Positions 20,941-56,825 of a stretch of DNA of 64,000 bases are shown one piece after another (position 1 is the first letter of the stretch; each line of letters starts with the position of its first letter). A program made the translations under genes and the position numbers. The DNA is taken from assembly GCA_964372345.1 (NCBI GenBank), contig CAYJQR010000001.1, positions 36,825-100,824 of the forward strand, in the 5' to 3' direction. Origin of the DNA: an uncultured Planctomycetia bacterium (lineage in GTDB: Bacteria > Omnitrophota > Gorgyraeia > JACOVV01). The notes beneath the pieces were generated by a model, which had not been told where the DNA came from, made no database searches, and saw only the letters and a program-made list of their open reading frames with translations.

Positions 20941-21649
<709 letters not shown>

Positions 21650-37082: not shown

Positions 37083-38059
37083 GCCAACAAACGGCGGTTT
37101 GGCTTTTTAAGAGAGCTCTCCGGGAGGAAAAGCTAGCCCACGCTTATCTTTTGACCGGGCCCGACGGCGTCGGTAAGAGAACTCTCGCTCAAGAGGCTGC
37201 GAAGGGACTGAACTGCCGGCTGGTTCATACCCAACTCGAGACTCGAGACTCGAGACTCGAGACTGAAGAAAATTGGCCCTGCGATTCCTGTCGCGAGTGC
37301 CGGCTGATCGAATCGGGACAGTACGCGGACGTCACTTTATTGACTCCTGAAAATAAAACTCTTAAGATCGAAGCCATTCGCCGCCTCCAACAGGCGGTGG
37401 CGCTGAAACCGTACGAAAGCCGTTTCCGTGTCGCGATTATTCAGGATGTGGACCAATTAACCCCCGACGCCGCCAACGCTTTCCTAAAAACGCTGGAAGA
37501 ACCGCCGCAGGGCGTTTTCTTTTTTCTAACGACCCAATACCGGGAGAGAGTTTTCGCGACGATTCAATCCCGTTGCCAGGTTGTCTCTCTGAAAGCCATT
37601 TCTAAAGAGATATTGGAGCGGAAGATGATCCCTCGTTCGGTGATTTCCTTGGCCCAGGGAAGTTTCGGCAGGGCAGACTATTGGATGGATCCCGAAGTGG
37701 GAGAGAGAAGAAAAAAAATCTTATCGGCGTTTTTCTTAAACCATTCTCTCGACGATATCAACGAAAAGGTATCCAGCAAAGAGGAGGAACGCCTGCTGAT
37801 GGAGGAAAAACTCCTTCTTCTGCAGAGCGGGCTTCGGGATTTAATCGTCTGGAAGAAAACAAAAGACGAGGCATTGCTCATTCATCGGGATTACCGGGAG
37901 CAAATCAGTCATTTTGCCTCCCGATTTGAGATGGACACTCTAGAAGATAAAATTATTTCTTTGGAACAGTTGACTCAAGGATTAGACCGCAGCGCTAACC
38001 TAAAACTAACCCGGGCGGTTCTGGAACTTGAGCTGGCGGACCTGACAAAGGCAGAATGA
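37061..38059 (+). CDS. holB: DNA polymerase III delta-prime subunit, with an in-frame heptamer tract.
   Basis: HAYLLTGPDGVGKRTLA, a Zn module (CDSCRECRL) and an SRC motif. 332 aa. It follows tmk as in Bacillus. Confidence 0.85.
   Translation: MSFSNILGQQTAVWLFKRALREEKLAHAYLLTGPDGVGKRTLAQEAAKGLNCRLVHTQLETRDSRLETEENWPCDSCRECRLIESGQYADVTLLTPENKTLKIEAIRRLQQAVALKPYESRFRVAIIQDVDQLTPDAANAFLKTLEEPPQGVFFFLTTQYRERVFATIQSRCQVVSLKAISKEILERKMIPRSVISLAQGSFGRADYWMDPEVGERRKKILSAFFLNHSLDDINEKVSSKEEERLLMEEKLLLLQSGLRDLIVWKKTKDEALLIHRDYREQISHFASRFEMDTLEDKIISLEQLTQGLDRSANLKLTRAVLELELADLTKAE
37235..37266. repeat. (CTCGAGA)4 heptanucleotide tandem repeat inside holB.
   Basis: Sequence is ctcgagactcgagactcgagactcgagactga. 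It encodes LETRDSRLETE in frame. Confidence 0.9.
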
Positions 38060-39774
38060 ATCGATACTACGTTACCACTCCTCTTTATTACGTCAACGAC
38101 AAACCCCATATCGGCCACGCCTATACCGAGATTGCGGCGGACACAATCGCTCGTTACCGTCGGTTCAGAGGGGATGAAGTTTTCTTTTTGACCGGGACCG
38201 ATGAGCATGGACAAAAAATCGAGCAGGCGGCTAAAAAAGCGGGGATGCCGGCGAAGGATTTCGCGGATCAGGTGGCTCCGCGTTTTTCGGAAGTATGGAA
38301 ACTTCTGGGGATCAGCTACGATTATTTTTTAAGGACGACGGAGCCAAGACATATTCAAACAGTGCAGAAGGTATTATCGCTCCTTTTTGAAAAAGGAGAT
38401 ATCTACATTTCTGAATACGAAGGATGGTATTGTACTCCCTGCGAGACGTTCTGGACGGAGACGCAGCTTGAAGAACAGAAAATGGAAAATGGAAAATGCC
38501 CACCGGAGGCGGGTTCGCCTCTGGCGAAGAAAATGGAAACGCCTGTTTGCATTGACTGCAAAAGACCGATTGAAAAAATCACGGAGAGTAATTACTTCTT
38601 TCGGTTATCGAAATATCAAGAGTGGCTGATGGACTACATCAATAGCCACCCTAAGTTTATCCAACCGGCAACGCGGCGGGAAGAAATCTTGAGTTTTTTG
38701 AAACAGCCGTTGAATGATCTCTGCATCTCACGTCCCAAACAGAGACTTGCATGGGGAATTCCGATTCCGTTCAGTCAAGATCATGTCACGTATGTGTGGT
38801 TTGACGCATTGATTAATTATATTAGTGGAATCGATTATCTTGAATGGGCTAAGAGCTGGGAGCTAGGAGCTAGGAGTGAAAACTCGGATTCTACCTCGCC
38901 AGCTTCCAGCTTCCAACTTCTAGCTTCTAGCCGTTTTTCAAAATTCTGGCCGGCCGATATGCACTTAATCGGCAAAGACATCCTTCGCCCTCACGCCGTC
39001 TACTGGCCCATCATGCTGCGCGCTCTCGGAATAGAACCCCCTAAACAGGTTTTTGCTCACGGCTGGTGGACGATGCAAGAGGAAAAAATGTCGAAATCCA
39101 AAGGAAATATCGTTGATCCGGTGGACGTCTGCGCCCGCTATGGCGTGGACGTTTTTCGTTATTTCCTTCTAAGAGAGGTGACCTTTGGGCTGGATGGCGC
39201 TTACTCGGAGGGGGCGTTGACTTTGAGGTTTAACAGTGATTTAGCCAACGATCTTGGTAATTTGTTTCATCGAACCCTGACGATGGTGGAGAAATACTAT
39301 GGGGGGAAAGTACCCCAGGTAGAACAGAAGGACGAGGGACGAAGGACGAGGGACGAAAGGAAATATATCCCAGAAGACTTAATCGTTCTTCTTCGATCTC
39401 TTCCGGATCGTTTGGATCAAGCGATGGAGGATCTTGATTTCGCGCGCGCTCTTTCCGCCATCTGGGAGTGCGTCAACCGGGCCAATAAATTGATTGAAGA
39501 AGTGAAACCGTGGGTTTTAGACAGGGAAAACGACCGGGAAGGGTTAAATCAAGTCATCTATTTTTTGGTGGATCTATTACGGATCATTACTCTGGCGGTG
39601 GCCCCCTTCATGCCGCGCGCGGCGGAAAAGATGTGGAAACAATTGAACCTTCCCTCGAAGTTAGAAGCGATGGGTTTTGAGGATTTGGCTCCTGGAAAAA
39701 CCGTCGGCGGTTTCCATGTGAACAAGGAAGAACCGCTCTTTCCCCGATTAGACACTAAGAAAGGAGACCGTTAA
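38056..39774 (+). CDS. metG: Methionine--tRNA ligase, carrying three in-frame repeat insertions.
   Basis: Has HIGH (PHIGHAY), KMSKS and Zn-knuckle cysteines (CTPCE...CIDCKRP). The product is 572 aa. Confidence 0.9.
   Translation: MNRYYVTTPLYYVNDKPHIGHAYTEIAADTIARYRRFRGDEVFFLTGTDEHGQKIEQAAKKAGMPAKDFADQVAPRFSEVWKLLGISYDYFLRTTEPRHIQTVQKVLSLLFEKGDIYISEYEGWYCTPCETFWTETQLEEQKMENGKCPPEAGSPLAKKMETPVCIDCKRPIEKITESNYFFRLSKYQEWLMDYINSHPKFIQPATRREEILSFLKQPLNDLCISRPKQRLAWGIPIPFSQDHVTYVWFDALINYISGIDYLEWAKSWELGARSENSDSTSPASSFQLLASSRFSKFWPADMHLIGKDILRPHAVYWPIMLRALGIEPPKQVFAHGWWTMQEEKMSKSKGNIVDPVDVCARYGVDVFRYFLLREVTFGLDGAYSEGALTLRFNSDLANDLGNLFHRTLTMVEKYYGGKVPQVEQKDEGRRTRDERKYIPEDLIVLLRSLPDRLDQAMEDLDFARALSAIWECVNRANKLIEEVKPWVLDRENDREGLNQVIYFLVDLLRIITLAVAPFMPRAAEKMWKQLNLPSKLEAMGFEDLAPGKTVGGFHVNKEEPLFPRLDTKKGDR
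38472..38540. repeat. Composite miniature element in metG: AGAACAG, (AAAATGG)3, hairpin cccaccggaggcggg, hairpin ttcgcctctggcgaa, then GAAAATGGAAAC.
   Basis: It encodes ENGKCPPEAGSPLAKKME, inserted between the two CxxC pairs of the MetRS zinc knuckle. It is a sister of the lnt copy at 16269-16357. Confidence 0.8.
38848..38932. repeat. SWELGA-type palindromic element, copy B2, inserted in frame in metG.
   Basis: Sequence is gctaagagctgggagctaggagctaggag ... ccagcttccagcttccaacttctagcttctagcc. It encodes AKSWELGARSENSDSTSPASSFQLLASS. Confidence 0.8.
39321..39360. repeat. (GAAGGAC/GAGGGAC) heptamer tandem repeat with an AGAACAGAA left terminus, inside metG.
   Basis: Sequence is agaacagaaggacgagggacgaaggacgagggacgaaagg. 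It encodes KDEGRRTRDERK in frame. Confidence 0.85.
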
Positions 39775-39816: not shown

Positions 39817-40950
39817 ATGTACTCCAGATTAATTGCCCCCCCAAAGGGGAAGAGCTTCTTTCTATTCGGGCCGCGGGGGACTGGAAAAACAACGTGGGTT
39901 AAAGCGGTCTTTCCTAACGCCCTCTATCTTGATCTTCTAGAAGCGGAACTTTTTAATGACCTTTTGGCTAATCCACAACGGCTGGAGAACTTAATCCCCC
40001 AATCGTTCAGCGACTGGATTATCATTGATGAAGTGCAAAAGGTCCCTGAGCTCCTAAATGAAGTCCACCGGTTGATCGAAAAATATAAATATCAGTTCAT
40101 CTTGACTGGTTCCAGCGCTAGGAAATTAAAGAAAAAGGGGCCAAACTTATTGGCAGGCCGCGCGTTAACCTACTCGATGCATCCTCTGACAGCGATGGAA
40201 CTGGGGCGAGATTTTAACTTAGATCACTCTCTAAAATATGGACAACTTCCCTGTGTCTATAGCGAGGCAAACCCCAAAGGTTATCTGGAGAGTTATGTAA
40301 AGACTTACCTAGAGCAAGAAATCCAGCAGGAAGGACTCACAAGAAACTTGGGGGCTTTTTCGCGTTTTTTAGAATCGGCTAGTTTCTCACAGGCGGCCGT
40401 ACTCAATATTTCAGCGGTAGCGCGTGAGTGCGCTATCGAGAGAAAAGTAGTTGAGAATTATTTCACTATCTTAGAGGATTTATTAATTGCGTATCGAATT
40501 CCTGTTTTTACAAAAAAAGCTAAAAGGCGATTGGTCACCCACTCAAAGTTTTATTTTTTTGATGTTGGGGTTTATCGTGTTTTAAGACCGATGGGACCTT
40601 TGGATATGCCTGAATCCGCCGAAGGGGCGGCATTGGAGGGGCTTTTGTTTCAGGAATTGAATGCGATCAATGCCTATTTTGATCTGGGCTACAAGATCTA
40701 TTTCTGGAGGACCTCCAATCAAGTGGAGGTTGATTTTGTGTTGTATGGGAATAAGGGATTGAGAGCGTTTGAGGTGAAACGGACCCGGAAAATCTCAAAC
40801 TCTATGCTAAAAGGACTCAAGGCGTTTTTAGAAAACTATCCACTAGCTAAAGCCTATTTCCTTTATGGTGGAGAACGCCGTATGCGGGAAGGGAAAATTG
40901 AGATTATTCCAATGGATTCCGCGCTCAAAAATTTACCCTCACTTCTCTAG
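39817..40950 (+). CDS. AAA+ ATPase with a C-terminal DUF4143-like domain.
   Basis: Walker A FLFGPRGTGKTT and Walker B IIIDEVQK. The 377 aa architecture is typical of the ATPase (AAA+ superfamily)/DUF4143 family common in defense islands. Confidence 0.75.
   Translation: MYSRLIAPPKGKSFFLFGPRGTGKTTWVKAVFPNALYLDLLEAELFNDLLANPQRLENLIPQSFSDWIIIDEVQKVPELLNEVHRLIEKYKYQFILTGSSARKLKKKGPNLLAGRALTYSMHPLTAMELGRDFNLDHSLKYGQLPCVYSEANPKGYLESYVKTYLEQEIQQEGLTRNLGAFSRFLESASFSQAAVLNISAVARECAIERKVVENYFTILEDLLIAYRIPVFTKKAKRRLVTHSKFYFFDVGVYRVLRPMGPLDMPESAEGAALEGLLFQELNAINAYFDLGYKIYFWRTSNQVEVDFVLYGNKGLRAFEVKRTRKISNSMLKGLKAFLENYPLAKAYFLYGGERRMREGKIEIIPMDSALKNLPSLL
40833..40950. repeat. 118-bp direct repeat, copy 1. 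This is the 3' end of the ATPase gene.
   Basis: About 97% identical to 42527-42654. Confidence 0.9.
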
Positions 40951-40974
40951 TCTAAAAACTGAAGGAACCGTGGA

Positions 40975-42276
40975 ATGTCTGGGGCGTGGGCAAATAAAAA
41001 ATTCGCCGAAGATATCCAGTCAGTAAACCAAGACCTGAAAAATTTGAACCATGATAAACCCTTGAGGAAAGGTCTTGAAGGGAGTGATATGGCGCAAGAT
41101 TCTATAAAATGTCCTAAATGCGGGGAGGCAATCCCTCTTTCTGAGGCGTTGTCGCAGGATATTGAAGAACGCGCCCGCCGGAAATACGAGGCGCAATTAT
41201 CTGAAAAAGAAACCGAATACCAAGCTCTGCTGAGAAAACAGCGCGAAGAACTTGCGATAAAACTTAAAAAACAGGCAGAAGAAGCTGTCAGCGCTGAAAT
41301 GACCGATCTGAAAGAGCAAGCGGAAGAGACGAAACGCAAGCTGAAACAAGCCAATGAGAATGAGTTGGCGTTGCGCAAAAAACAGCGCGAATTGGAAGAG
41401 AGGGAAAAAACGCTTGAGTTGGAAACCGCCAGAAAGATAGACGAAGAACGGCGAAAGATCGAGACGGATGTTTTCACGCGACTTGAAGAACAGCATAAGC
41501 TGAAAGACGCGGAAAAAGATAAGAAACTTTCGGATGCCTTCAAGCAGGTTGAAGAATTAAAGCGAAAGATGGAGCAAGGTTCCCAGCAGATGCAGGGAGA
41601 AGTGCTTGAATTGGAACTAGAAGAATTATTTAAGCGAGAGTTTCCTTTTGATGTCATCGAACCAGTTTCCAAAGGGGTGCGGGGCGCTGATATTGTCCAA
41701 ACTGTCAAAACGCAATCCGGGCGCACGTGCGGGAAAATCCTCTGGGAAACAAAGAGAGTAAAAAACTGGAGCGACTCCTGGGTTCAAAAGTTGAAAGACG
41801 ATCAGCAAGACGCGAAAGCGGATATTGCAGTCCTCGTTTCCGAGGCGCTTCCCGCGGGGTTTCATCACTTTCGGCAGATTCACAGTGTGTGGGTAACGGA
41901 TATTCCATCGGCCGTTAGCCTGGCTTTAGCCCTGAGAGTGGTGTTGATTCAAGTGGCCAGTGCCAAGGAAATGGAGAGTGGCAAAGATGATAAAAAGGAT
42001 CTCATTTATCGTTATATAACTGGTACTGACTTCCGTAATCGGGTCACTGCGATCATCGAAGGATTTCGGACAATGAAAGAAGACCTTGAAGCGGAGAAGC
42101 GAGCCATGCAGAGGATTTGGGGAAACCGGGAAAAGCAGATCGAAAGGATCATTTTCAACACGGCCGGGATGTACGGGGATTTAGAGGGGTTGGCTGGGGC
42201 GGCCTTGCCGCAGATTAAGATTCTGGAGTTGCCAGTAGGGGAAAATATAGAAAAGAAGACAAGGGAGACAGAGTAA
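40975..42276 (+). CDS. DUF2130-like protein: an N-terminal zinc ribbon, a long coiled coil and a C-terminal PD-(D/E)xK-like motif.
   Basis: CPKCGE zinc ribbon, an EK-rich coiled coil and GADIVQTV...GKILWETKR (a D...E-x-K pattern). The start may be the ATG at 41089. Confidence 0.55.
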   Translation: MSGAWANKKFAEDIQSVNQDLKNLNHDKPLRKGLEGSDMAQDSIKCPKCGEAIPLSEALSQDIEERARRKYEAQLSEKETEYQALLRKQREELAIKLKKQAEEAVSAEMTDLKEQAEETKRKLKQANENELALRKKQRELEEREKTLELETARKIDEERRKIETDVFTRLEEQHKLKDAEKDKKLSDAFKQVEELKRKMEQGSQQMQGEVLELELEELFKREFPFDVIEPVSKGVRGADIVQTVKTQSGRTCGKILWETKRVKNWSDSWVQKLKDDQQDAKADIAVLVSEALPAGFHHFRQIHSVWVTDIPSAVSLALALRVVLIQVASAKEMESGKDDKKDLIYRYITGTDFRNRVTAIIEGFRTMKEDLEAEKRAMQRIWGNREKQIERIIFNTAGMYGDLEGLAGAALPQIKILELPVGENIEKKTRETE

Positions 42277-42432
42277 ATGCTGAAGCGAATAAAAAGGAAA
42301 AGCTCAAGCTCATGGGGAAAATAAAAGGAGGCATTTCCTCGGGACGGAACCCTTTGGATAGCCCCCCATCGTGATTCTACTATGAGTATAGCATACGAAT
42401 AACAATATCGTTGAAGATTGTTTTGAAGGTAT

Positions 42433-42654
42433 TTGTTCCTCTCCCCACCTGCCTACCCGATAAAACCTTCTGGCAAACTCCATGGGTTTGGGGGTAAAAT
42501 GAGGGGAAAAGAGAACCGGTCTCATTTCCTATTAGAAAACTATCCACTGGCTAAAGCCTATTTCCTTTACGGTGGAGAACGCCGTATGCGGGAAGGGAAA
42601 ATTGAGATTATTCCAATGGATTCCGCGCTTAAAAATTTACCTTCACTTCTCTAG
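42433..42654 (+). pseudogene. 3'-terminal remnant of a DUF4143 ATPase gene. This is the second copy of the direct repeat.
   Basis: The last 37 codons (YPLAKAYFLYGGERRMREGKIEIIPMDSALKNLPSLL) are identical to the C-terminus of the 39817-40950 gene. There is no upstream ATPase body. Confidence 0.7.
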
Positions 42655-42674
42655 GGCCTATGAGGTAACAACGA

Positions 42675-45056
42675 ATGTCAAACGAAGCAGACACTTGCAG
42701 GCGATATGTTTTACCCAAGCTCTATGCGGCTGGTTGGACAGACGATCAGATATCAGAGCAAAAATATTTTACGGATGGCCGAATAATAATAATTGGTAGC
42801 GCCTGCAAGCGAAGAAAACAAAAAAGAGCAGATTATCTTCTGCGGTATCGCCGCGACTTCCCCATAGCTATTATCGAGACCAAAGCAGATTATAAAAGCG
42901 CCGGCGACGGCATGCAGCAAGCAAAAGAGTATGCGGAAATTCTTGGGTTGAAGTTCGCGTATTCGACCAACGGAGAGAGGTTTATAGAACATGATTACAC
43001 AACTGGGATTGAGCGCGAACTTTTGGAATTGCCGTCGCCGGATGATCTGTGGCAAAGATATAGAAAGTCAGAGAGCATAACGGAAGAAACCGTTGCCGGC
43101 AAGCTTTTAACTCCGTATTATTACAATCCCGATAAAGAACCTCGTTATTATCAGCAGATAGCGATCAATAGAACCGTACAATATGTTTTAAAGGGGAAAA
43201 GACGTATTTTGATCACCCTGGCGACAGGAACAGGCAAAACAGAAGTGGCTTTTCAAATTGCCTGGAAATTGTGGAACGCGAAATGGAACAAGACGGACGA
43301 TGGAAGAAAACCAAGAATCTTATTTTTGTCAGATCGGTCTATCCTGGTTGACGATCCCAAGGATAAAACATTTATTCCGTTTGGAGACGCGCGCCATAAA
43401 ATTGACGGGGAAGCGATAAAAAGCAGGGAAGTGTATTTTTCGCTATATCAATCCATCGCTAAGGACGAAAGGCGACCGGGGCTGTATAGAGAATATTCCC
43501 CTGATTTCTTCGATCTTATCATTATTGATGAGTGCCATCGCGGGAGCGCTGCCGACGAAAGTAACTGGAGGGAGATCTTAGAATATTTTGAACCCGCGTA
43601 TCAAATCGGCATGACCGCAACTCCATTAAGGGAAGACAACAAGGACACCTATAAGTACTTTGGCAATCCAATTTATACTTACACGTTAAAACAAGGAATA
43701 GACGACGGTTTTCTCGCGCCTTACAAAGTGCACCGCGTTGTTACGGAAGTGGACGCGACCGGGTGGAGGCCCGAACAAGAACAAAAGGACCGGTATGGCA
43801 GAGAGATTCCCGATGGTGAATACAGCACAAAAGATTTTGGCCGTATTTTAGCCTTACGGCCGAGAACCGAAGCGGTTGCTCAGCATTTAACAGATTTCCT
43901 CAAAAAAAAGGACCGATTCGCCAAAACTATAGTGTTCTGTGAAGACCAGGAAGAGGCCGAAGAAATGCGCAGGATATTAAACAACCTGAATTCCGACTTA
44001 GCGCAACAATATCCTGATTTTGTAGTGAGGATTGTCTCGGAAGAAGGGTCTGTTGGACGCGGCCATTTGAGTAAATTTCAGGAGTTGGAGACATTAACCC
44101 CAGTCATTGTCACGACAAGCAAGTTATTAACGACGGGTGTTGATATTCAAATGTGCAAGAATATCGTCCTGTATAAAGTCATAAACTCGATGACTGATTT
44201 TAAGCAGATTATCGGCCGTGGAACACGAGTACGCAGCGATTACGGCAAGCTCTATTTTAACATTATTGATTATACTGGCAGCGCGACGCGCCTGTTCGCA
44301 GACCCCTCTTTTGACGGCGAACCCGCACTCTTGACACAGGAAGAAATCGACACGCTCGGTAAAGTAAAAGAAGGGAGCCAAGTGATTCTAGCTCCTGAAG
44401 AAGCCAAAGAATATAAAAAGGCCGATGAAGAAGTAACAATAGACGATCTCGTTGTCTGTGACCTCCCCGATGGACAGCGCGAAAGAAGAAAATTCTACGT
44501 GGATGACGGTAAGAGGATCAAAATTATTTACGATTATGAACAGCATTTAGACGCCAACGGCAATAAACTGCGAGTCGTAAAATACACAGAGTATACGGCT
44601 GAAAAAGTGCGTTCAATGTTCACTTCCGCGGCGGCGCTTCTTTCAAAATGGCAAGTGGCCGAAGAGCGAACGGCAATTATCGAGTTCCTACAAGATAAAG
44701 GGATTACTTTTGAAGAACTTGTCAAAGCGACAGACCAAGAAGACGCGGATCATTTCGATCTTCTCTGCCATGTAGCTTTTAATGCCCCTTTGCGCTCGCG
44801 CAGGGAGCGGGCTGAACGTTTAAGAAAAGGGAAAGTGGATTTCTTTGAATACTTTTCTCCAGAGGCCCGGCAGATCCTAAATGAAATACTGGATAAATAT
44901 GTCGAGTTCGGTACAGAACAGTTTAAAGTCCCGGATATTCTTAAAGTAGATCCAATTGCCCGCCACGGAAACGTTATTGAAATTGCATCTTTGTTTAGCG
45001 GGCCGGAAAAGCTCAGAGAGGTCTTTGAAAAGCTTCAAACACTTTTGTATAGCTAG
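42675..45056 (+). CDS. hsdR: Type I restriction enzyme R subunit.
   Basis: The N-terminal Mrr-like nuclease region (CRRYVLPKLYAAGW, IIETKADY), SF2 helicase motif I (LATGTGKT) and the DEAD-box motif IIIDECHRGS. Confidence 0.85.
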   Translation: MSNEADTCRRYVLPKLYAAGWTDDQISEQKYFTDGRIIIIGSACKRRKQKRADYLLRYRRDFPIAIIETKADYKSAGDGMQQAKEYAEILGLKFAYSTNGERFIEHDYTTGIERELLELPSPDDLWQRYRKSESITEETVAGKLLTPYYYNPDKEPRYYQQIAINRTVQYVLKGKRRILITLATGTGKTEVAFQIAWKLWNAKWNKTDDGRKPRILFLSDRSILVDDPKDKTFIPFGDARHKIDGEAIKSREVYFSLYQSIAKDERRPGLYREYSPDFFDLIIIDECHRGSAADESNWREILEYFEPAYQIGMTATPLREDNKDTYKYFGNPIYTYTLKQGIDDGFLAPYKVHRVVTEVDATGWRPEQEQKDRYGREIPDGEYSTKDFGRILALRPRTEAVAQHLTDFLKKKDRFAKTIVFCEDQEEAEEMRRILNNLNSDLAQQYPDFVVRIVSEEGSVGRGHLSKFQELETLTPVIVTTSKLLTTGVDIQMCKNIVLYKVINSMTDFKQIIGRGTRVRSDYGKLYFNIIDYTGSATRLFADPSFDGEPALLTQEEIDTLGKVKEGSQVILAPEEAKEYKKADEEVTIDDLVVCDLPDGQRERRKFYVDDGKRIKIIYDYEQHLDANGNKLRVVKYTEYTAEKVRSMFTSAAALLSKWQVAEERTAIIEFLQDKGITFEELVKATDQEDADHFDLLCHVAFNAPLRSRRERAERLRKGKVDFFEYFSPEARQILNEILDKYVEFGTEQFKVPDILKVDPIARHGNVIEIASLFSGPEKLREVFEKLQTLLYS

Positions 45057-45089
45057 AGCATAATTGTTACATTTTATGTAATAATTATG

Positions 45090-45118
45090 TTGACAAACAG
45101 CTTCTTATATGGCATATT
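45090..45118 (+). promoter_or_regulatory. Candidate promoter for abiEi-abiEii.
   Basis: TTGACA (45090-45095), a 17-nt spacer and CATATT. It overlaps the palindromic operator. Confidence 0.4.
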
Positions 45119-45147
45119 TGTTACAGAGAACGTAACAAATATGCCAT
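45109..45147. promoter_or_regulatory. Perfect 16-bp inverted-repeat operator overlapping the abiEi start codon.
   Basis: ATGGCATATTTGTTAC agagaac GTAACAAATATGCCAT. The right arm ends in the ATG at 45146. Confidence 0.7.
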
Positions 45148-45760
45148 GAGTACTCTATACGATAGAAGACAAAATCTTTATAACGTTGCCTCAACCCAAC
45201 AGGGGTATTTCTCTGCCAAGCAAGCCCTTTCTTGCGGTTATTCCCACCGTCTCCAGCATTATCATAAGGAAAAGGGCCAATGGGTTGAAATAGAGCGGGG
45301 TTTCTTCCGCCTTTCCAATTTCCCATCCTCGCCCAATGAGGATCTTGCTCGTTGGTCCTTTTGGAGCCGTAATCGTGAAGATATTCCTCAAGCTGTTGTT
45401 TCTCACGAATCGGCCCTTGCTATTCATGAACTCAGCGATGTGATTCCTTCAAAAGTTCACCTTACGATTCCACCCTTTTTCCGTAAGAAAAGCGCCGGAG
45501 GGTGCGTCCTTCATAAAAATATCCTCCTCCCGGAGGTTATAGAAAAACGAGAGGGGTTCTTTGTGACAACTCCTATGCAAACAATTATTGATGTGGCTGA
45601 TAGCGCTCTTAGCCTTGAACAGCTTGAACAAGCAGTTCGGGACGCTCTGGCCAAGGGGCTTATGGTCCCGGCCAATATCGCAAAAGCAAAGATGTCAGCC
45701 GCCGCTCGTGAAAAGATAGGTCTGATTATGGAGAACATTAAAAGAAAGCCGGTTTTATGA
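45146..45760 (+). CDS. abiEi: AbiEi-type antitoxin / transcriptional regulator (type IV TA system).
   Basis: A 204 aa product with an N-terminal winged-helix region. It is translationally coupled to the downstream nucleotidyltransferase and sits behind a palindromic operator. Confidence 0.65.
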   Translation: MSTLYDRRQNLYNVASTQQGYFSAKQALSCGYSHRLQHYHKEKGQWVEIERGFFRLSNFPSSPNEDLARWSFWSRNREDIPQAVVSHESALAIHELSDVIPSKVHLTIPPFFRKKSAGGCVLHKNILLPEVIEKREGFFVTTPMQTIIDVADSALSLEQLEQAVRDALAKGLMVPANIAKAKMSAAAREKIGLIMENIKRKPVL

Positions 45761-46632
45761 AAAACGAGAGAACGTATATGTCCGCTGCTTCTTTTCGCCA
45801 AGCCCTTGAAGAGCGCCTGCACAATATTTCCAAGGAACAGAAAGTTCCATTGGAAAGGTTGCGTAAGCGCATTGCGTTTGATCGTCTTCTGGCCCGATTG
45901 TTCGATAGAAAAGCGCATCCCGATCCTCAATGGTTGCTTAAAGGAGGTTATGCTTTAGAAATTAGGTATCTCAATATTGCCCGGGCGACTAAAGATATTG
46001 ATATGGCTATTCCCAGCATGGTCGGGCCTTCTCCTGGAACAGTAAGAGGTATTTTACAAAGGTCGGCTGAGATAAATCTCGGAGATTGGTTTGCGTTTCT
46101 TATAGGAGAACATTCTCAAGAATTAAGCCAGGCAGTTTACGGCGGTTGGCGCTATCCGGTAGAGGCGAGGTTGGCAAATAGAGAATTCACAAAATTTCAT
46201 GTTGACGTTGCCATCGGAGACGTCGTCGTTTCAGAGGCCGAGTGGTTCAAAAGCACAGAGTTATTAAGTTTCGCGGGGATTCCTCCCGCAGAGGTGGCGC
46301 TTTTCCCGAGGGATCAACAGTTCGCTGAGAAAGTTCATAGTTATACTTTCCCGCGAGACCCAAAAGAGATGTCGCGGGTTAAAGACCTTGTTGATATGGT
46401 TTTGTTGATTGAGAACGGCATGCCAAGTTCTGCGCATGTAGTAAAAGCGGTTAAGGCAACGTTTAAAAGAAGAAAAACGCATACTGTGCCTGACGCGCTC
46501 GTTTCTCCACCTGCTTCATGGGAAGCAAGTTATCGGGAAATGGCGTTAGACTGCGGAGTAAAATGCAAGACCGTTGAAGAAGCGTTTAAGTCAGTTTCTT
46601 CCTATTGGGGAAATTTATTTAAGAAGGAGTAA
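45757..46632 (+). CDS. abiEii: AbiEii/AbiGii-family nucleotidyltransferase toxin (DUF1814).
   Basis: A 291 aa product with a nucleotidyltransferase-fold GG...D.D region (LLKGGYALEIRY...TKDIDMAI). The ATGA overlap with abiEi is typical. Confidence 0.7.
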   Translation: MKNERTYMSAASFRQALEERLHNISKEQKVPLERLRKRIAFDRLLARLFDRKAHPDPQWLLKGGYALEIRYLNIARATKDIDMAIPSMVGPSPGTVRGILQRSAEINLGDWFAFLIGEHSQELSQAVYGGWRYPVEARLANREFTKFHVDVAIGDVVVSEAEWFKSTELLSFAGIPPAEVALFPRDQQFAEKVHSYTFPRDPKEMSRVKDLVDMVLLIENGMPSSAHVVKAVKATFKRRKTHTVPDALVSPPASWEASYREMALDCGVKCKTVEEAFKSVSSYWGNLFKKE

Positions 46633-46635
46633 ATA

Positions 46636-48210
46636 ATGATGACCAAAAAATCAAAAATTAAAATACCGCAAACAACGTCGGCGCAATTGAGTTCTATTAT
46701 AAAATCATGCCGCGATATCATGCGTAAAGATAAAGGATTAAACGGCGACGCGGATCGCCTTCCTATGCTTACCTGGATTATGTTCCTAAAGTTCCTCGAT
46801 GATATGGAAATGATGCGGGAAACCGAAAGCAAAATGGAAGGTAAAAAATATGTTCCGGCAGTTCACGCGCCTTATCGCTGGCGTGATTGGGCATCCAAAG
46901 AAGACGGCATTACCGGAGAAGAGCTGATTTCCTTCATCAATCATCAGGAATGCGTGCGGCCGGATGGCAGTCGCGGGCCGGGTCTGTTCACCTATTTACG
47001 GGCGCTTGAAGGCACCGGTCAAAAAAGAGATCGCCGTAACGTTGTTTCAACGGTTTTCCGCGGCACAGCAAACCGGATGCTTAATGGCTACCTTCTGCGG
47101 GATGTCATCAATAAGATCAATCAGATTCATTTTACCTCAACGGAAGAAATTCATACTCTATCCCATCTTTACGAAAGTCTTCTTAAAGAAATGCGGGACG
47201 CATCCGGAGACGCAGGCGAGTTCTATACTCCACGGGCAGTGGTCAAGTTGATGGTAGCGGTGGTCAATCCTCGGCTTGGCGAAACTGTGTTGGACCCGGC
47301 GTGCGGAACAGGCGGATTCCTTGTTGAGTCATTTGAGCATATCAAAAAACAGTGTAAAACAATTGCGGATCATAAAAAACTTCAAGAGGAGACGATCTTC
47401 GGAGGAGAGGCAAAGTCTTTACCGTATTTACTGTGTCAGATGAGTCTCCTTCTGCACGGGCTTGACTCTCCGAATATCGATCCGGGAAATTCCCTGCGGG
47501 TTCCCTTAAAAGAAATCGGTGATAAAGACCGCGTAGAGGTGATTCTGACCAATCCTCCTTTCGGAGGCGAGGAAGAAAAAGGCATTCAAGGTAATTTCCC
47601 TCAAGATAAACAGACGGCGGAAACCGCGCAACTTTTCTTACAACTGATTATGCGTAAATTGAAACGTCCCGGGCAGGGAAATAAAGGAGGCGGCCGCGCG
47701 GGCGTGATTGTTCCCAACGGCACGCTTTTTGGCGACGGCGTCTGCGCGCGGATAAAAGAAGAATTACTCAAGGAATTCAATCTTCATACGATCGTACGGC
47801 TGCCGAACGGTGTTTTCTCGCCATACACTTCCATACCGACGAATATACTCTTTTTTGACCGCGCCGGGCCGACAAAAGAAATCTGGTTTTATGAACATTT
47901 GCTTCCGGAGGGAAGAAAAAACTACACGAAAACAAAACCGATACAATTTGAAGAATTCCAATCATGCCTGGAATGGTGGGAGAAACGGGAAGAGAACGAA
48001 CGTGCCTGGAAGATCAAAGTCGAAGATGTTTTAAGATATGCCCAAGATGGTAATCTTATTTCAACCAACCTGGATATCAAAAACCCCAATACAGAGGACG
48101 CTTTTGAACATATGCCGCCGGAGAAGCTGATAGAGGATATTTTGGAGAAAGAAGAAAAAATTATGGTAATTTTGAGAGAAGTCAGTCAAATTCTAAAGGA
48201 AAAAATATGA
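46636..48210 (+). CDS. hsdM: Type I restriction-modification N6-adenine DNA methyltransferase subunit.
   Basis: An N-terminal HsdM_N helical domain, an AdoMet motif (DPACGTGGFLV) and the catalytic NPPFG. Confidence 0.9.
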   Translation: MMTKKSKIKIPQTTSAQLSSIIKSCRDIMRKDKGLNGDADRLPMLTWIMFLKFLDDMEMMRETESKMEGKKYVPAVHAPYRWRDWASKEDGITGEELISFINHQECVRPDGSRGPGLFTYLRALEGTGQKRDRRNVVSTVFRGTANRMLNGYLLRDVINKINQIHFTSTEEIHTLSHLYESLLKEMRDASGDAGEFYTPRAVVKLMVAVVNPRLGETVLDPACGTGGFLVESFEHIKKQCKTIADHKKLQEETIFGGEAKSLPYLLCQMSLLLHGLDSPNIDPGNSLRVPLKEIGDKDRVEVILTNPPFGGEEEKGIQGNFPQDKQTAETAQLFLQLIMRKLKRPGQGNKGGGRAGVIVPNGTLFGDGVCARIKEELLKEFNLHTIVRLPNGVFSPYTSIPTNILFFDRAGPTKEIWFYEHLLPEGRKNYTKTKPIQFEEFQSCLEWWEKREENERAWKIKVEDVLRYAQDGNLISTNLDIKNPNTEDAFEHMPPEKLIEDILEKEEKIMVILREVSQILKEKI

Positions 48211-49406
48211 AAAAGTGGGATAGATATAGCTTGGGAGAATTAATAACCTTAGAAAGAAGGCCTGTAGATGTTGAATTGGATAAAAGATATCAAGAAATCG
48301 GTATTTATTGTTTTGGTAGAGGAGTTTTTCATAAGCAACCGCGTACAGGATATGAAATAGGAAACAAAGCTCTCTTTTTAGTAAAAGAGAGAGATCTTAT
48401 ATTCCAAATAACATTTGCATGGGAGGGAGCCATTGCACTAATGAGTGATTCGGAAAATTGGATGTATGCGTCTACGCGTTTCCCGACTTTTCGTGCTAAT
48501 GAAAGAAAGTGCGATCCTAAATTTTTACTTTACTATTTCCGTACCCAGGAAGGGAGAGATCAGCTAGTAAAAATATCCCCTGGCTCAGCAGGAAGAAACA
48601 GAGTTCTAAGTCTCAAAAGAATGCCAGAGGTATTTATTCCACTCCCATCGCTTCCCGAGCAACACCGTCTCGTAGAATGTATCGAGGCAATCGTAGGTAA
48701 AATTGACGAGGCGAAAAGATTACGAGAAGAAGCACAGAAAGCAATAGATGCATTAATAGATGCGAAGCTACGGGGCCTAATTAATGAAAGCAACAAAAGA
48801 TACGAATGGGATTTCGGTCCTATTTCTAAATACGCAGAAGTCAATCCTTCTAGGCAAGGTCAGATCAAGTTGGCTGATAAAGATGTGGTCTCTTTTGTTC
48901 CTATGTCCGCTGTTGATGACATTACAGGTACCATCAAAGAGCGATTTATTAAACCCTACTATGAAGTTTCAAGAGGATATACATGGTTTAGAGAGGGGGA
49001 TGTTATATTCGCTAGAATTACGCCATGCATGGAGAATGGGAAATCGGCAGTTGCTGTTAATTTAGAAAACGGCCATGGATTTGGTTCCACCGAATTCCAT
49101 GTGTTAAGACCGGGGACTAAAATCTTAGCTGACTGGTTACATTTATTAATTCGCAGTAAAGATTTCAGAAGGGATGCGGAATCTTATTTCAAAGGGACAG
49201 CAGGTCAACAAAGGATCCCTCAAAGTTTTCTTGAAAAAAAAGAAATCCCCGCTCCACCGATACCAAAACAGAGGGAGTTAATAAATTATTTTAAGAAATT
49301 TACTGTGTGTCTTGCTGAAGAACACAAGATTGATGAAGAACGTCACGCCGAATTGAACGCTTTATTCCCTTCCGTATTAGACAAAGCCTTTAAAGGTGAG
49401 ACATGA
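48207..49406 (+). CDS. hsdS: Type I restriction-modification specificity subunit.
   Basis: A 399 aa product with two target-recognition domains separated by the conserved central helix (LPSLPEQHRLVECIEAIVGKIDEAKRL) and a C-terminal conserved helix. It is AT-rich, as is usual for hsdS. Confidence 0.8.
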   Translation: MKKWDRYSLGELITLERRPVDVELDKRYQEIGIYCFGRGVFHKQPRTGYEIGNKALFLVKERDLIFQITFAWEGAIALMSDSENWMYASTRFPTFRANERKCDPKFLLYYFRTQEGRDQLVKISPGSAGRNRVLSLKRMPEVFIPLPSLPEQHRLVECIEAIVGKIDEAKRLREEAQKAIDALIDAKLRGLINESNKRYEWDFGPISKYAEVNPSRQGQIKLADKDVVSFVPMSAVDDITGTIKERFIKPYYEVSRGYTWFREGDVIFARITPCMENGKSAVAVNLENGHGFGSTEFHVLRPGTKILADWLHLLIRSKDFRRDAESYFKGTAGQQRIPQSFLEKKEIPAPPIPKQRELINYFKKFTVCLAEEHKIDEERHAELNALFPSVLDKAFKGET

Positions 49407-52400
49407 TCCCTGTCTTTTTTTGCCATATCTGTGATGAGAAAGATAATTGTAGATTTGCGATTAGAATAGCTGAGAAGTTGCGAAAAGATATCACGGGAGT
49501 AGAACCATTTATTGCTTGCCAGGATGATAATTGGAACAATGCCAAAGAATTAAATACGGCATTAAATCACTGCTATCTTTTTATCGCAATAGTAAGCTCG
49601 GGGTTTCTGCAAAAGAATAATTGTGTTTCTGAATTGGAACAGGCAAGAGAAAGGAACCAAAAAAATGGGAAATTTCCTATTATTTTCCCGATACAATATC
49701 AATGCGACTCAAAAGTCATGGCCGATCTAGAGTTTTCTATAGATCAAGGTAAACAGACGGGAGAGAGATGGGTTGATTTCTCTAATGATAGCGAATATGA
49801 CGTCAAGTATGAAGAATTTTATAAAAGAATATATTCTACAATTCTTGATAGCAATCTGATAACCAACGAGGATTTTCACAAGGATTGTAAAGTTCTCGAT
49901 GTTGTTTTAAGAGAAGATGAGCCAACCTCGGGTTTCGTAAAGACAGCGATAGATTATTGCCGAAGGGGTGAAGAATATGGTTTTTATTTTTTTAAAAATC
50001 TTTCGAATCCAAAATGGCTAAGCCATTTATATGCGGCGGGATTTTTTAACAATAATCCCTCTCCTGTAGAATCTGAGAAAAATGCCGGCTACTATAATAT
50101 CAATATCCCTTTTTGGACGGTATTACCTTATCTAGAGAAAGTAGCAGAAAATCTTCGGGGTAGACCGACTTTTGTAATAATTGATATTATACGTAAGGTT
50201 ACAAGGCCGGTTGCTCCAGTAAAAAAACAAGACAACTATCACACCTGGTATTCCTTCATCAAGATCATGGCGAACCTGCCGCCTGATGTTATTCAATTGG
50301 AGGACATTGATCTCGTCGCTGACTGGCTGGAGAGTAGATTTGATGTTTCTCTTGTGATGCACGAAGTCGGCAGGACATTTTTGCCGAAACTGCTTTCCAC
50401 GCAAGGAGAAGACTTGCGGAAAGTTACGCGTCTTATCGAAATTGTTATAAATTCGATTAAGGTTGAAAAAAGACATAGCGTCGAAGTCCGTGGGCTTCAA
50501 GAGATGTTTGAACTGAATGCTTCACAATTGGGCGAGAAATGCGGCAAGGAGATTGTGGAAGTTCTTAAAAGGAAAATAGAGACAGTGATCGCCGCGGAAG
50601 ACGATACATACAGCTATATATGGCGGCCCGCTATTGAGGACCATGAGCAGAATGTTGGCGACGGCGAATACCGGCACATCTTGATTGCGGGCTTGCGGGA
50701 TGTGCTTTTAGGATTCGCCTCTAAACAAGATGCTTCAGGGATGATCCAGACGTTTTTCCAATCAGAAAAATACATTATCAGACGTATCGGATTATATGTT
50801 TTAGATAAGCTGTTTGAAAAGTTTAGGTATAAAGAATTGGCCGAACAGGCCATTCAAGATGAGATGAGAGAACTATTACTCAAGAGCAATTATCACCACG
50901 AATGGTATCTGTTTATAAAAACTCACTTTAATACTCTTTCAAAGGAGGTTCAAAAGAAGCTTATCGAGTATATCAGCACCCTAAAGGGAGATTGGCGGGA
51001 TGCCGCGGATAAGGAGAGATTTAATATAGAGCTTCGGCGCCAGTGGTTTGGCGCGATTCAATCCTCCGGATATCAACTGCCTGCCGAAATAAAACAACGA
51101 TATCGTGAAGGGATTAATGCTGAATCCGAACACCCAGAGTTTTTAGGTTATATGGGCCCTGTTTCGTGGGGGGATGAAAATGTCTTTTCCGTGAGTGAAT
51201 TATTGGCTCAAGGAAGCGCCGAAAACATTATTTCATTTCTTAATGGCTATCGGGGGAAGAACCGGTTTGGTAAACCGGCTATCCGTGAATCAGGGCAGTC
51301 TTTGAAAGCGGCCGTTAAGGCAAAACAGGATTTTTTTGAAGGAAATCTTGATAAATTTAAAGAGGTAAAATGGGAGTATTGGTACTACCTGTTGGACGCT
51401 TTTGAAGAGCTATGGGATGATAAAAAACAGATTGACTGGAATAAAGTACTAGCGTTTTGTTCGTCAATAGTCCATCAGGATTTCTTGTACCAAGAAGAGG
51501 AAAAGAAAGATAACCACCCGCTTTACCCTAAGGAAAGTTGGGTCATTTCTGTCATCGCAGACCTGATTAAGAAAGGGGTTCAGAATGATGAACGGACGAT
51601 GCCGGATGATTGTTTAGATAATGCCGAACAGATTATCAGGATCATGCTAGGGAAACAGAAAGCAGAGGCAACCGGGAAAGAAGATAGCGCTTTGAACGAA
51701 GCGATGAACACAACCAAAGGGCGCGTCTTAACGTGTTTCATCAGTTATGCCTTGCGGCGGTACAGAACTTATGAAAGGCTGCCTGAGAAAGGCATTAAAG
51801 AAAAGGAATCGTTCTGGGGAAAAATAGAACCTCTCTTCGACGAGGAGATCAAAAAAACAAAAGAAGGAAATTTTGAGTTTTCAAGCATTGCGGGGGCGTA
51901 TCTTCCCAACCTTTTTTATTTGAATAACGATTGGGCCGAGAGAAATATCAATCATATATTTTCACAAGAGGAAAAGCACTGGCGCTGCGCTATGGCGGGA
52001 TATGCGTATGTCAGTACTGTCTATTCAGTTATTTATGGCTTGTTGAAGAAGAACGGCAACCTTAAACGCGCTCTTGATACGGAATTTACCAATGACAATG
52101 TAAAAGAGCGGATCGTCGAAAATATCGCGGTCTCCTACTTAAGGGGGCAGGAGTCTTTAGACGGCGAAGGGAGTTTATTTAAGTACCTGCTTGAGAAATG
52201 GCAGGTAAAAAACATTGAAGATACTATTGATCTTTTTTGGGCTCATCGGGATGTCGAGTTAAATCGTGAACAGAGAGATCGAATATATGGCTTTTTGCGG
52301 TATTGTTTTAACCGCGTCAAAGGGCATGAAGAGGAAAACAAAGGGATCCTTTCCGATTTAAACCTGTTGGCCGTATTCTTGTGCGAAATCAACAATGAGC

Positions 52401-55920: not shown

Positions 55921-56825
55921 ATGAGTTCAGTTTCATCAAAAGACTTTCCCAATCCATCAAGACAAATCGCTCAGTCATCGTCGGGATTGGGGATGACGCG
56001 GCGGTTCTTCAATATAAGAAAGACCGCTATCTTCTTTTTACGACTGACATGATCGTGGAAGGAACGCATTTCCTTTTAAAGAGCGCGGCTCCTTATCAAA
56101 TCGGCTGGAAGGCGATGGCGGTGAACCTGAGTGATATTGCGGCCATGGGAGGATTGCCTCGATGGGCGGTGGTGTCGCTGGGGGGGCCGTTTCAAAGACG
56201 GAAAATGGAAAATGGAAAATGGAAAATAGAAGAATTTGTCTGGGAAATTTACCGAGGGATGAGCGCGGTGGGCAAGAAATTCGGCGTTCAGATTGTGGGA
56301 GGGGATACCGATAAGGCGGACCGGTGGACGATCAACATCGCGCTATTGGGAGAAGTAGAAAAAAAATATCTAAAACTTCGCTCAGGAGCGAAAGTGGGTG
56401 ATCGGGTCTTTGTCACGGGTTCACTCGGCGGCTCGATTCATGGGAAACACCTGACTTTCATTCCTCGAGTCAAAGAGGCCCGCTATTTAGTCACTCATTA
56501 TCCGGTGACCAGCATGATGGATCTCTCGGACGGCCTGGCGAGCGACCTTTGCCGGATCATGGAGCAGAGCAAGGTTGGAGTCCTGATTGATGAAGAAAGA
56601 ATCCCTCTTTCAAAAGAGGCAAAGGACTCGCGAAGCGCTTTCTGCGATGGGGAAGATTTTGAATTATTATTTACGGTGCCAAAATCCGCGGGCGAAAGAT
56701 TAGAGAGGAACGTCCCCTGGGCGCGTCTGATTGGAGAAGTGACGCCTGCTTCGCGAGGACTACGGATGAGAGATCGAACTGGGCAGGTGCGGACGGTCGC
56801 ATGGAAAGGGTTCGAGCACTTCTAA
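55917..56825 (+). CDS. thiL: Thiamine-monophosphate kinase, carrying an in-frame heptamer insertion.
   Basis: An AIRS-family N-terminus (FSFIKRLSQ...GIGDDAAVL). The insert RRKMENGKWKIEEF sits at 56200-56232. Confidence 0.75.
   Translation: MNEFSFIKRLSQSIKTNRSVIVGIGDDAAVLQYKKDRYLLFTTDMIVEGTHFLLKSAAPYQIGWKAMAVNLSDIAAMGGLPRWAVVSLGGPFQRRKMENGKWKIEEFVWEIYRGMSAVGKKFGVQIVGGDTDKADRWTINIALLGEVEKKYLKLRSGAKVGDRVFVTGSLGGSIHGKHLTFIPRVKEARYLVTHYPVTSMMDLSDGLASDLCRIMEQSKVGVLIDEERIPLSKEAKDSRSAFCDGEDFELLFTVPKSAGERLERNVPWARLIGEVTPASRGLRMRDRTGQVRTVAWKGFEHF
56200..56232. repeat. (GGAAAAT)3.5 heptamer array, copy A5, inside thiL.
   Basis: ggaaaatggaaaatggaaaatggaaaatagaag. Confidence 0.85.

Follow-up and report, generated by a model that had tools for sequence, protein, structure and literature searches.

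A DUF2130 gene between direct repeats of an ATPase gene 3' end, best read as a recombination scar in a defence island

In a 64-kb stretch of bacterial DNA (the window, on whose numbering all coordinates are given), a DUF2130 gene was bracketed by two copies of the 3' end of the ATPase gene upstream of it. The most plausible reading is that the locus bears an ordinary scar of recombination within an island of defence genes and is not a new mobile element. We see about an even chance that the downstream copy stems from a second ATPase allele, approximately 97% identical to the present one, whose 3' end was displaced and is not translated, and that it marks the site of a past recombination.

A repeat search and pairwise alignment matched positions 40828-40950 (copy A) to 42532-42654 (copy B) over 123 nt without a gap. 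The copies were identical at 119 of 123 positions (96.7%), shared a mismatch-free block of up to 59 nt and lay 1704 nt apart, start to start; a match of this length at 97% cannot be due to chance. The initial annotation had reported a repeat of the ATPase 3' end at about 97% identity, which was borne out, while its starting coordinates (40833 and 42527) were each off by 5. The pair was the longest direct repeat in the window and had exactly two copies there, with no occurrence at an unrelated locus within the 64 kb. Both copies stopped exactly at a TAG codon and their flanks were unrelated from the next base on. Copy A comprised the last 40 codons and the stop of an intact gene for an AAA_14 + DUF4143 ATPase of 377 aa (39817-40950; this and all features below are on the + strand). 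The protein matched PF13173 (AAA_14, E=1.8e-24, 86.6 bits against a cutoff of 27), PF13635 (DUF4143, E=6e-31, 107.8 bits against 28.1) and the PADLOC candidate defence family PDC-S01 (E=8.6e-55), and it was full length, with 100% coverage against 377-378-aa proteins in a set of 120 homologues. All four mismatches between the copies were synonymous third-position transitions, leaving the translations identical (40/40 residues); they fell at repeat positions 18, 39, 99 and 111, with A, T, C and C in copy A and G, C, T and T in copy B. The C-terminal 40 residues were the least conserved part of the family (37-50% amino acid identity among 28 homologues), indicating that copies A and B came from very close alleles.

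Copy B consisted of 40 codons and a TAG from a 5'-truncated ATPase gene, an orphan 3' fragment with no start codon downstream of its intact homologue. When a profile of the 120 ATPase homologues was run against the six-frame translation of 42277-42660, only profile positions 336-377 were matched, in agreement with the earlier statement that no ATPase body lies upstream of copy B; the non-coding spacer before it (42277-42531) held no ATPase remnant by this search. The 5' edge of copy B fell at a mid-gene position, and this edge, the lack of a remnant before it and the common end of both copies at the TAG fit a join made inside a resident ATPase gene. A 73-aa ORF at 42433-42654 was rejected as a translated mini-protein, as it had no family match and nothing else supported it. 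A silent cassette that would switch the ATPase C-terminus was likewise rejected, since copy B encodes the same residues as copy A.

The repeats enclosed the DUF2130 gene and additional sequence, as first described: the bracketed segment (40951-42531, 1581 bp) was made up of a 138-bp leader from the ATPase stop to the DUF2130 start (40951-41088), a 1188-bp gene of 395 aa (41089-42276) and the 255-bp spacer. These lengths follow from a start at ATG 41089 rather than 40975, which was set by alignment with 393-aa homologues and was preceded by the ribosome-binding site GGGAG. The protein matched PF09903 with E=6e-70 (235.9 bits against a cutoff of 26.7) and had a CPKC motif at the N-terminus, a coiled coil and a C-terminal DUF2130 domain, a member of the PD-(D/E)XK superfamily (PMC3424549). 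The GC content of the gene was 0.46-0.49, and that of both the ATPase gene and the downstream hsdR 0.43-0.45. Its nearest homologue (P0001) was 92% identical in amino acids and 89% in nucleotides, and the homology of the nearest DUF2130 locus (L062) to the window started only at 41075. Plasmid searches with the protein returned distant matches under 41% identity.

The spacer had no Rfam match and no significant fold, its ORFs had no protein-family match, and no remnant of the usual DUF2130 partner genes was detected in it; a simple scan found no promoter or terminator. A 60-nt element within the spacer (E60, 42460-42519) had an 80% identical counterpart in L062, where it lay upstream of DUF2130. 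The motif TGGCAA-N18-TAAAAT was present in both, so that E60, judged by eye from the sequence, may be a promoter. The position of E60 relative to DUF2130 was permuted between the window and L062, which counts against the displacement model, as that model leaves the permutation unexplained.

The surrounding locus was a defence island extending from metG to tatD. The PDC-S01-type ATPase was its first gene after metG, followed by DUF2130, a type I restriction-modification (R-M) operon with an embedded AbiE system and a TIR/Dsr1-like gene. Copy B was separated from the start of hsdR by 20 nt (42655-42674) containing the ribosome-binding site GAGG. The hsdR gene (42675-45056) was the first of an HsdR-AbiEi-AbiEii-HsdM-HsdS(-TIR) module that was conserved across loci. 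Homology to the window broke at gene boundaries, at 41075 for DUF2130 and within 6 nt of the hsdR ATG in three related loci (at 42675 in L070 and L075, at 42681 in L072). DUF2130 and the R-M module were each found elsewhere beside other neighbours, and these breaks and changing neighbours together indicate that the island is a mosaic of gene-sized modules. At other loci DUF2130 was usually followed by an AAA_15, AAA_21 or AAA_23 ATPase, which was missing here.

The pattern of divergence between the copies bears on their origin. If copy A had been under selection and copy B had drifted neutrally, the probability of finding four of four differences synonymous would be 0.02 (all substitutions) to 0.07 (transitions only); this argument rests on few differences, namely four. 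The initial annotation had offered two options, a cassette insertion that duplicated its target or the deletion of a second ATPase gene, and the evidence leans toward an origin from a second ATPase. The same pattern was seen at two further loci, with nine of nine coding differences synonymous in L032 and 14 of 17 in L067, which together with the four of four in the window argues that copy B came from a second, allelic ATPase gene and not from a fresh duplication in place. Divergence of this synonymous-only kind could also arise if, after an in-place duplication, another allele took the place of the intact gene by ordinary homologous recombination.

From this anatomy we infer the following donor structure and order of events, completed in a single homology-anchored step. 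At the start, the ATPase gene would have stood directly before the type I R-M operon, 20 nt from it. DNA from a close relative, in which a DUF2130 gene stood behind that relative's ATPase 3' end, would then have recombined in, anchored on the left side by homology within the ATPase gene and joined on the right side illegitimately at 42531/42532, which corresponds to codon 337/338 in the resident gene. The present ATPase would be completed by the 3' end that came in, and the resident 3' end would have been shifted 1.7 kb downstream, still joined to hsdR. In experiments, homology-facilitated illegitimate recombination usually deletes recipient DNA past the anchor and does not duplicate part of it, which counts against this model. 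Once formed, the arrangement could plausibly be reversed, and excision by homologous recombination, as put forward in the initial annotation, is a fair inference: RecA-type recombination between copies A and B would delete DUF2130 cleanly, restoring an ATPase gene with an unchanged protein sequence directly before hsdR.

C-terminal-only downstream copies of gene ends were found at seven loci in approximately 770 kb scanned: the window, L032, L067, L039, L006, L011 and L021, of which the first four were examined. In L032, two DUF4143 ATPase genes were bracketed by a repeat of approximately 190 nt that took in the 3' terminus of an ABC-2 permease gene and extended about 45 nt beyond the stop codon. 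In L067, a Bro-N gene was bracketed by DUF2130 3' ends that were 73% identical in nucleotides but 88% in amino acids, with 14 synonymous and three non-synonymous codon differences; recent in-place duplication cannot explain L067. Copy divergence was thus synonymous only or mostly so in all three cases with a bracketed insert, and the inserted genes mostly encoded PD-(D/E)XK-family proteins. L039 resembled the window in that its duplication had one edge 123 nt upstream of the stop codon in a DUF4143 ATPase gene. However, in L039 a whole 837-bp unit (the ATPase 3' end and the downstream gene for a small membrane protein) was repeated head to tail, whereas in the window only the 3' end was repeated and the downstream sequences were unrelated.

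Relatives of the locus were sought in genomes and metagenomes. Exact-protein look-ups of the ATPase, hsdR and metG returned no match in the genome collections searched, and that of DUF2130 returned only a 1.3-kb Logan contig. This contig, from the assembly of run ERR4904391, matched 40973-42295 at 100% and covered neither repeat junction; the junctions are therefore those of the present assembly. A scan with the ATPase yielded 60 loci, the nearest 75-80% identical in amino acids, and none of the 60 had DUF2130 or hsd genes beside the ATPase. Among five DUF2130, approximately 58 ATPase and four hsdR contexts, neither the empty site (ATPase-hsdR) nor the donor arrangement (ATPase-DUF2130) was found, an observation that counts against displacement; no excised form was found either. 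The nearest hsdR relative (L069, 95% nucleotide identity) began inside hsdR, so that the upstream junction lay outside it; other relatives had RadC, DoxX or unrelated sequence upstream of hsdR.

The first alternative is that the DUF2130 segment (40951-42531) was inserted into a lone ATPase-hsdR junction, that the upstream 123 nt were duplicated at repair, for example through fill-in of widely staggered breaks, and that the copies diverged later. It requires only one ancestral arrangement and no mobility genes, which are indeed absent, and the repeat of L032, passing the stop codon by about 45 nt, looks like a duplicated target. The size and identity of the window repeat also fall within the published range of such duplications (PMC2853133), which likewise overlap gene 3' ends. 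However, the synonymous excess at the window, L032 and L067 would be unexpected for a neutral relic unless the intact gene was later swapped for another allele, and the right edge exactly at the stop codon would be a coincidence. We regard this reading as unlikely. A tandem of modules, the second option of the initial annotation, is also rather unlikely. In that case an ATPase-DUF2130 module and an ATPase-R-M module would have stood side by side between metG and tatD, and a deletion would have taken the tail of the first module together with codons 1-337 of the second ATPase gene. The allelic synonymous divergence is explained equally well, the loss of the usual AAA_15/AAA_21/AAA_23 ATPase after DUF2130 could be accounted for, and DUF4143 paralogues in tandem and 5'-truncated remnants do occur at other loci. 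Those tandem paralogues are only about 25% identical, however; two independent gains of near-identical ATPases at one site would be needed in addition to the deletion, and the spacer retained no detectable partner-gene remnant.

It is very improbable that DUF2130 is a mobile cassette that integrated as a circle at the ATPase 3' end, whether by a recombinase acting in trans or by Campbell-type RecA recombination through a carried ATPase 3' end. A restored gene with direct repeats at its 3' end is the hallmark of an integrative element, E60 is found on one side of DUF2130 in the window and on the other in L062, as expected from circular permutation, and the Logan contig stops about 20 nt beyond the DUF2130 gene on either side. 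However, when all genes were typed by Pfam and PADLOC, no recombinase, integrase or transposase gene was found in the segment, the island or its flanks, and there was no tRNA in or beside the segment. No DNA site was conserved at the ATPase 3' end among 28 homologues, where the fraction of identical codons was 0.33-0.47 compared with 0.31-0.48 elsewhere in the gene. Approximately 45 other ATPase genes had no such repeat, except for the plain tandem duplication in L039; other DUF2130 genes did not adjoin ATPase fragments, and viral contigs contained neither a DUF2130 relative nor a match to E60. No terminal inverted repeats joined 40951-41088 with 42277-42531, and no attC-like structure was present, the spacer having no inverted repeat and the spacer with copy B folding at z=+0.45. 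These results give no support to a self-mobile 'cassette', and the comparison with related loci, as proposed in the initial annotation, found the window arrangement in none of five DUF2130 and none of approximately 58 ATPase contexts.

Three specific kinds of element were rejected as well: an integron gene cassette (no folding attC downstream of the ORF and no integrase nearby), a transposon, IS or MITE (no terminal inverted repeats, and a duplication of 123 bp where under about 15 bp is expected) and a site-specific integrative element at the gene 3' end (no tyrosine or serine recombinase gene and no attachment site conserved as DNA among the ATPases). An assembly artefact, in which ATPase-DUF2130 and ATPase-hsdR strain variants were stitched through the shared 123 nt, is hardly credible: the organism is apparently uncultivated, with proteins absent from the genome collections searched, and such repeats are where assemblers err, but the unique spacer/copy B junction could not be created by a shared k-mer, the copies were kept apart at four positions instead of being merged, N runs are absent, and the same architecture was present in independent assemblies of other organisms (L032/L004 and L067/L068).

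On its own the scar is small, recording how the metG-tatD defence island was pieced together and marking DUF2130 as a late addition that could be lost again without damage. Its wider interest lies in the recurrence, as inserted defence genes are enclosed by long direct repeats of the upstream gene's 3' end in at least three uncultivated lineages that are unrelated, with copies that differ almost only synonymously. It is improbable that the repeat is one instance of a general, recombinase-free movement of single defence genes, each carrying the 3' end of the donor's preceding gene as a 'handle'; if true, such a gene could insert itself after the corresponding gene of a related genome and be lost again, with the anchor gene kept intact.

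Among known systems, 3'-end-targeting integrative elements (attL/attR) share with the window the direct repeats, the intact target and the slightly diverged far copy. The window differs from them in having no integrase, no core site conserved across the ATPase family and an insert of a single gene in 1.6 kb. [quoted passage not shown] 2017, PMC5361080; Jackson et al. 2009, cited in PMC5361080). There, as in the window, an intact upstream gene is followed by a new module and by an orphan fragment, the 3' end of the earlier allele lacking a start codon, and the homology that orphan and intact gene share can give rise to further recombination. However, the ends displaced in those loci code for toxin tips that differ and come with their immunity genes, in arrays that function in immunity, whereas copy B encodes the same 40 residues, brings nothing of its own and is followed by hsdR 20 nt later.

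The other comparison is with insertion with long target duplication, described first in Helicobacter pylori (Nobusato et al. 2000, ref. 37 in PMC2853133) and surveyed by Furuta, Abe and Kobayashi 2010 (PMC2853133). Its cases had repeats of 46-423 bp that were 93-100% identical and often overlapped the 3' end of the upstream gene, and its authors described the mechanism as unknown. They selected repeats above 30 bp that were not dispersed in the genome, with an insert below 20 kb that had R and M homologues but no mobility gene, and a relative with a single repeat and both flanks aligned. In the same way, the window had a gene-sized insert (1581 bp, one gene) without a mobility gene between 123-nt repeats that are far longer than transposon target duplications and overlap the upstream gene 3' end, and the inserted gene was a nuclease-related defence gene. 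It differed in that the published inserts carry R-M genes, while the window insert was DUF2130 alone, with hsdR, hsdM and hsdS outside, downstream of copy B, and in that the published cases rest on an empty-site genome, while none was found for the window locus in the genome and metagenome collections searched. Copy divergence that is purely synonymous (the window and L032) or mostly so (L067) was not described in the portion of the survey drawn on here; at these loci it argues for a donor-borne copy. The pattern, found in at least three lineages, suggests that R-M 'long target duplications' may often be donor-borne homologous ends and not true target duplications, an idea open to test in species of which many strains have been sequenced. 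Should the nuclease itself promote the event, this would offer a lead on how insertions with long target duplication come about.

Across the full 64-kb window, the longest direct repeat lay at 40828-40950 (copy A) and 42532-42654 (copy B), and only these two copies were found. They aligned ungapped over 123 nt, 119 of which were identical, and their starts lay 1704 nt apart. The repeat reported in the initial annotation was thereby confirmed, but its coordinates were each 5 nt off. Copy A comprised the final 40 codons and TAG stop of the ATPase gene (39817-40950, + strand), whose 377-aa product carries AAA_14 and DUF4143 domains and was full length when compared with 120 homologues. The TAG was the shared end point of both copies; hsdR started at 42675, 20 nt past copy B, with a GAGG ribosome-binding site in between. 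When the region around copy B (42277-42660) was translated, it matched a profile of the 120 homologues at positions 336-377 only, and the same profile detected no ATPase remnant in the 255-bp spacer 5' of copy B, indicating that copy B is a clean 5'-truncated ATPase fragment. The remaining description, that no ATPase body precedes copy B and that the copies bracket a DUF2130 gene, was correct.

The bracketed segment (1581 bp) consisted of a 138-bp leader between the ATPase stop and the DUF2130 start (40951-41088), the DUF2130 gene (41089-42276; Pfam E=6e-70) and the spacer (42277-42531). The DUF2130 reading frame as listed from 40975 was too long; the real start was ATG 41089, behind a GGGAG site, because close homologues are all ~393 aa and align from that ATG. 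The spacer had no Rfam match, no significant fold (z=+0.45), no reading frame matching a protein family and no remnant of the genes found 3' of DUF2130 in other loci. No inverted repeats linking both ends of the segment were found. Both DUF4143 and DUF2130 are listed as members of the PD-(D/E)XK nuclease superfamily (Steczkiewicz et al. 2012; PMC3424549). A 60-nt non-coding element within the spacer (42460-42519) was 80% identical to positions 308-367 of comparison locus L062, being 3' of DUF2130 in the window and 5' of it in L062. It was single copy wherever examined and contained TGGCAA-N18-TAAAAT; it may be a promoter.

The segment belongs to a defence island between the end of metG (39774) and the start of tatD (53086), flanked 5' by cysS, tmk, holB and metG and 3' by the TatD-type gene and further housekeeping genes. 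Island genes were co-oriented and lower in G+C than the flanks: the ATPase (PADLOC candidate defence family PDC-S01, E=8.6e-55), DUF2130, hsdR, AbiEi, AbiEii, hsdM, hsdS and a gene for a 1099-aa protein (49403-52702) that combines a TIR domain at its N terminus with a Dsr1-like body. The last protein matched PADLOC Dsr1 over residues 180-1094 (E=7e-153), with TIR in the place of SIR2 in Dsr1; at the same site 3' of hsdS, locus L075 (13887-16896) had a split pair of a 492-aa TIR protein and a 515-aa protein. No mobility machinery was observed, there being no recombinase gene in the island or flanks and no tRNA gene at the island. No terminator-like site was found on the + strand from the ATPase to hsdR and all genes are co-oriented, so read-through between them is possible.

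Heptanucleotide tandem arrays were unusually common elsewhere in the window, accounting for 23 of 40 Tandem Repeats Finder rows. They lay, among other places, at 1034-1118, 1489-1563, 5353-5473, 15859-15935, 21137-21169, 37234-37264, 38478-38498, 38848-38931, 39327-39357, 56200-56231 and 61512-61546, with units including AAAATGG, CCATTCT, GCTAGGA/GCTGGGA, ACGTACG, ACTCGAG and AACTCAA; (GGAAAAT)n had 17 matches against 0.05 expected. Several were inverted pairs folding into long hairpins (15850-15945, z=-4.9; 5345-5485, z=-4.2), and three lay within metG, apparently in frame. The arrays resemble the cyanobacterial heptamer STRR repeats and the in-frame palindromic elements of Rickettsia.

Exact-protein look-ups for the ATPase, hsdR and metG returned no record. 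The ATPase family was very large: over 100 members shared 75-80% aa identity with the window's protein and were labelled Omnitrophota, Nitrospira, Actinobacteria and candidate phyla (candidate phyla radiation), a spread suggesting that the gene has often and recently moved from one phylum to another. Many homologues (L002-L061) were on 1-3-kb contigs, often in tandem with 25%-identical paralogues. None of ~58 fetched loci had DUF2130 or hsd genes beside the ATPase homologue, and the ATPase is no regular partner of either DUF2130 or the restriction-modification (R-M) module. The closest DUF2130 relatives were Omnitrophota-type (up to 92% aa and 89% nt identity). Nucleotide homology to L062 was limited to 41075-42234, and DUF2130 neighbours were an AAA_15 ATPase followed by a different type I system (L062), an AAA_23 protein (L073), Bro-N (L067) or unrelated genes (L066). 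An ABC/OLD-type ATPase usually lay 3' of close DUF2130 relatives (L062 2062-3885, L073 7111-8604, L067 12448-14196), of the AAA_15/AAA_21, AAA_23 or AAA_15 plus OLD-like TOPRIM kind, hinting at a two-gene module of which the window lacks the second member. The HsdR-AbiE-HsdM-HsdS(-TIR) module was also present in L070 and L075; in L072 the shared part was hsdR and the beginning of the gene after it. Nucleotide homology with the window began at ATG 42675 in L070 and L075 and at 42681 in L072 (≤6 nt from the ATG); upstream were RadC, DoxX and unrelated sequence, respectively. In the window (42675-49406), L070 (1211-9603) and L075 (6738-13469), the AbiEi/AbiEii toxin-antitoxin pair lay between hsdR and hsdM, and type I R-M plus AbiE forms a conserved composite module. 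Variable neighbours and homology edges at genes indicate that the island is a mosaic of gene-sized modules.

All four differences between copies A and B (repeat positions 18, 39, 99 and 111) were observed to be third-position synonymous transitions, leaving the 40 encoded residues identical. With copy B neutral and copy A selected, the chance of a synonymous-only pattern was 0.02, or 0.07 counting transitions only. Conservation within the ATPase family is lowest in this C-terminal stretch (37-50% aa identity), showing that the copies came from very close alleles. Synonymous sites at the ATPase 3' end were not conserved beyond those elsewhere in the gene among 28 homologues, which is evidence against an attachment site conserved at this position.

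Of 45 other ATPase genes, one (L039) had its own 3' end duplicated, and lone 5'-truncated ATPase remnants occurred in L023 and L054. The architecture was observed to recur: when fetched loci totalling ~770 kb were scanned for copies of only the C-terminal end of a gene lying 3' of the intact gene, two further bracketed inserts (L032, L067) and the L039 duplication were recovered. Three more candidates were open reading frames in L006 (380-1948 in reverse-strand coordinates), L011 (3-1520 in forward coordinates) and L021 (285-764 in reverse-strand coordinates); closer examination covered L032, L067 and L039. In L032, a candidate-phylum contig whose ATPase and permease sequences also occur in L004, a ~190-nt repeat (3678-3868 and 7010-7207) covered 147 nt at the end of an ABC-2 permease gene and ~45 nt past its stop, bracketed 3.3 kb with two DUF4143 ATPase genes, and differed in coding sequence by 9 of 9 third-position synonymous changes. 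In L067 (the same sequence as L068), Bro-N was flanked on one side by a complete DUF2130 gene and on the other by a further DUF2130 3' end (repeat at 11069-11200 and 12097-12235; 73% nt and 88% protein identity; 14 synonymous and 3 non-synonymous codon differences), with similarity extending as far as the ribosome-binding region of the gene that follows. L039 was a plain 837-bp tandem duplication (11057-11893 and 11894-12730) including a downstream small membrane-protein gene. In the window, L032 and L067 alike, the downstream copy has the look of a fragment from a different functional allele rather than of a fresh duplicate in decay.

We favour, at about an even chance for the whole route, that copy B stems from a resident ATPase allele whose 3' end was displaced. 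Donor DNA from a close relative, for which we infer an ATPase 3' end followed by DUF2130, would have recombined on the left through homology in the ATPase and joined illegitimately on the right at 42531/42532. The incoming end would then complete the ATPase gene, and the old end would remain 5' of hsdR; the event would have been a single step, with DUF2130 presumably arriving after the R-M module. In-place target duplication at the ATPase-hsdR junction needs fewer ancestral states, but would fit the synonymous differences only on the assumption that a different allele has since taken the place of the intact gene, and is rather unlikely. Slightly less probable still is a tandem of two complete ATPase-led modules that later suffered a deletion; this history would fit these data too and could explain why the DUF2130 partner gene is missing, but needs more steps and left no other trace. 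A circular cassette, site-specific or Campbell-type, is improbable: it is favoured only by the permuted 60-nt element and the ends of a 1323-nt Logan contig, the one record of the exact DUF2130 protein (identical to window 40973-42295), and against it stands the lack of a recombinase, of a conserved site and of another example. Misassembly is more improbable again, because the spacer/copy B junction is unique and the copies differ.

Given the mismatch positions, the longest perfect block between the copies was 59 nt, which is longer than the ~25-30 nt of homology required by RecA. Were the two copies to recombine, DUF2130 would be lost and the ATPase, its sequence unaltered, would end 20 nt from hsdR; this supports, as a possibility, the earlier description of the segment as primed for excision. 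Neither a deleted nor a circular form was observed.

The repeat is real and was correctly observed, and is best filed as a new case of a recombination scar of a known kind, within a defence island. Its modest interest lies in the synonymous-only signature, which three unrelated loci share and which bears on the origin of 'long target duplications'. [quoted passage not shown] At a descriptive level, the repeat also resembles the 'insertion with long target duplication' of R-M systems, reported in many bacteria with repeats that are 46-423 bp long, 93-100% identical, often overlapping gene 3' ends and mechanistically unexplained (PMC2853133).
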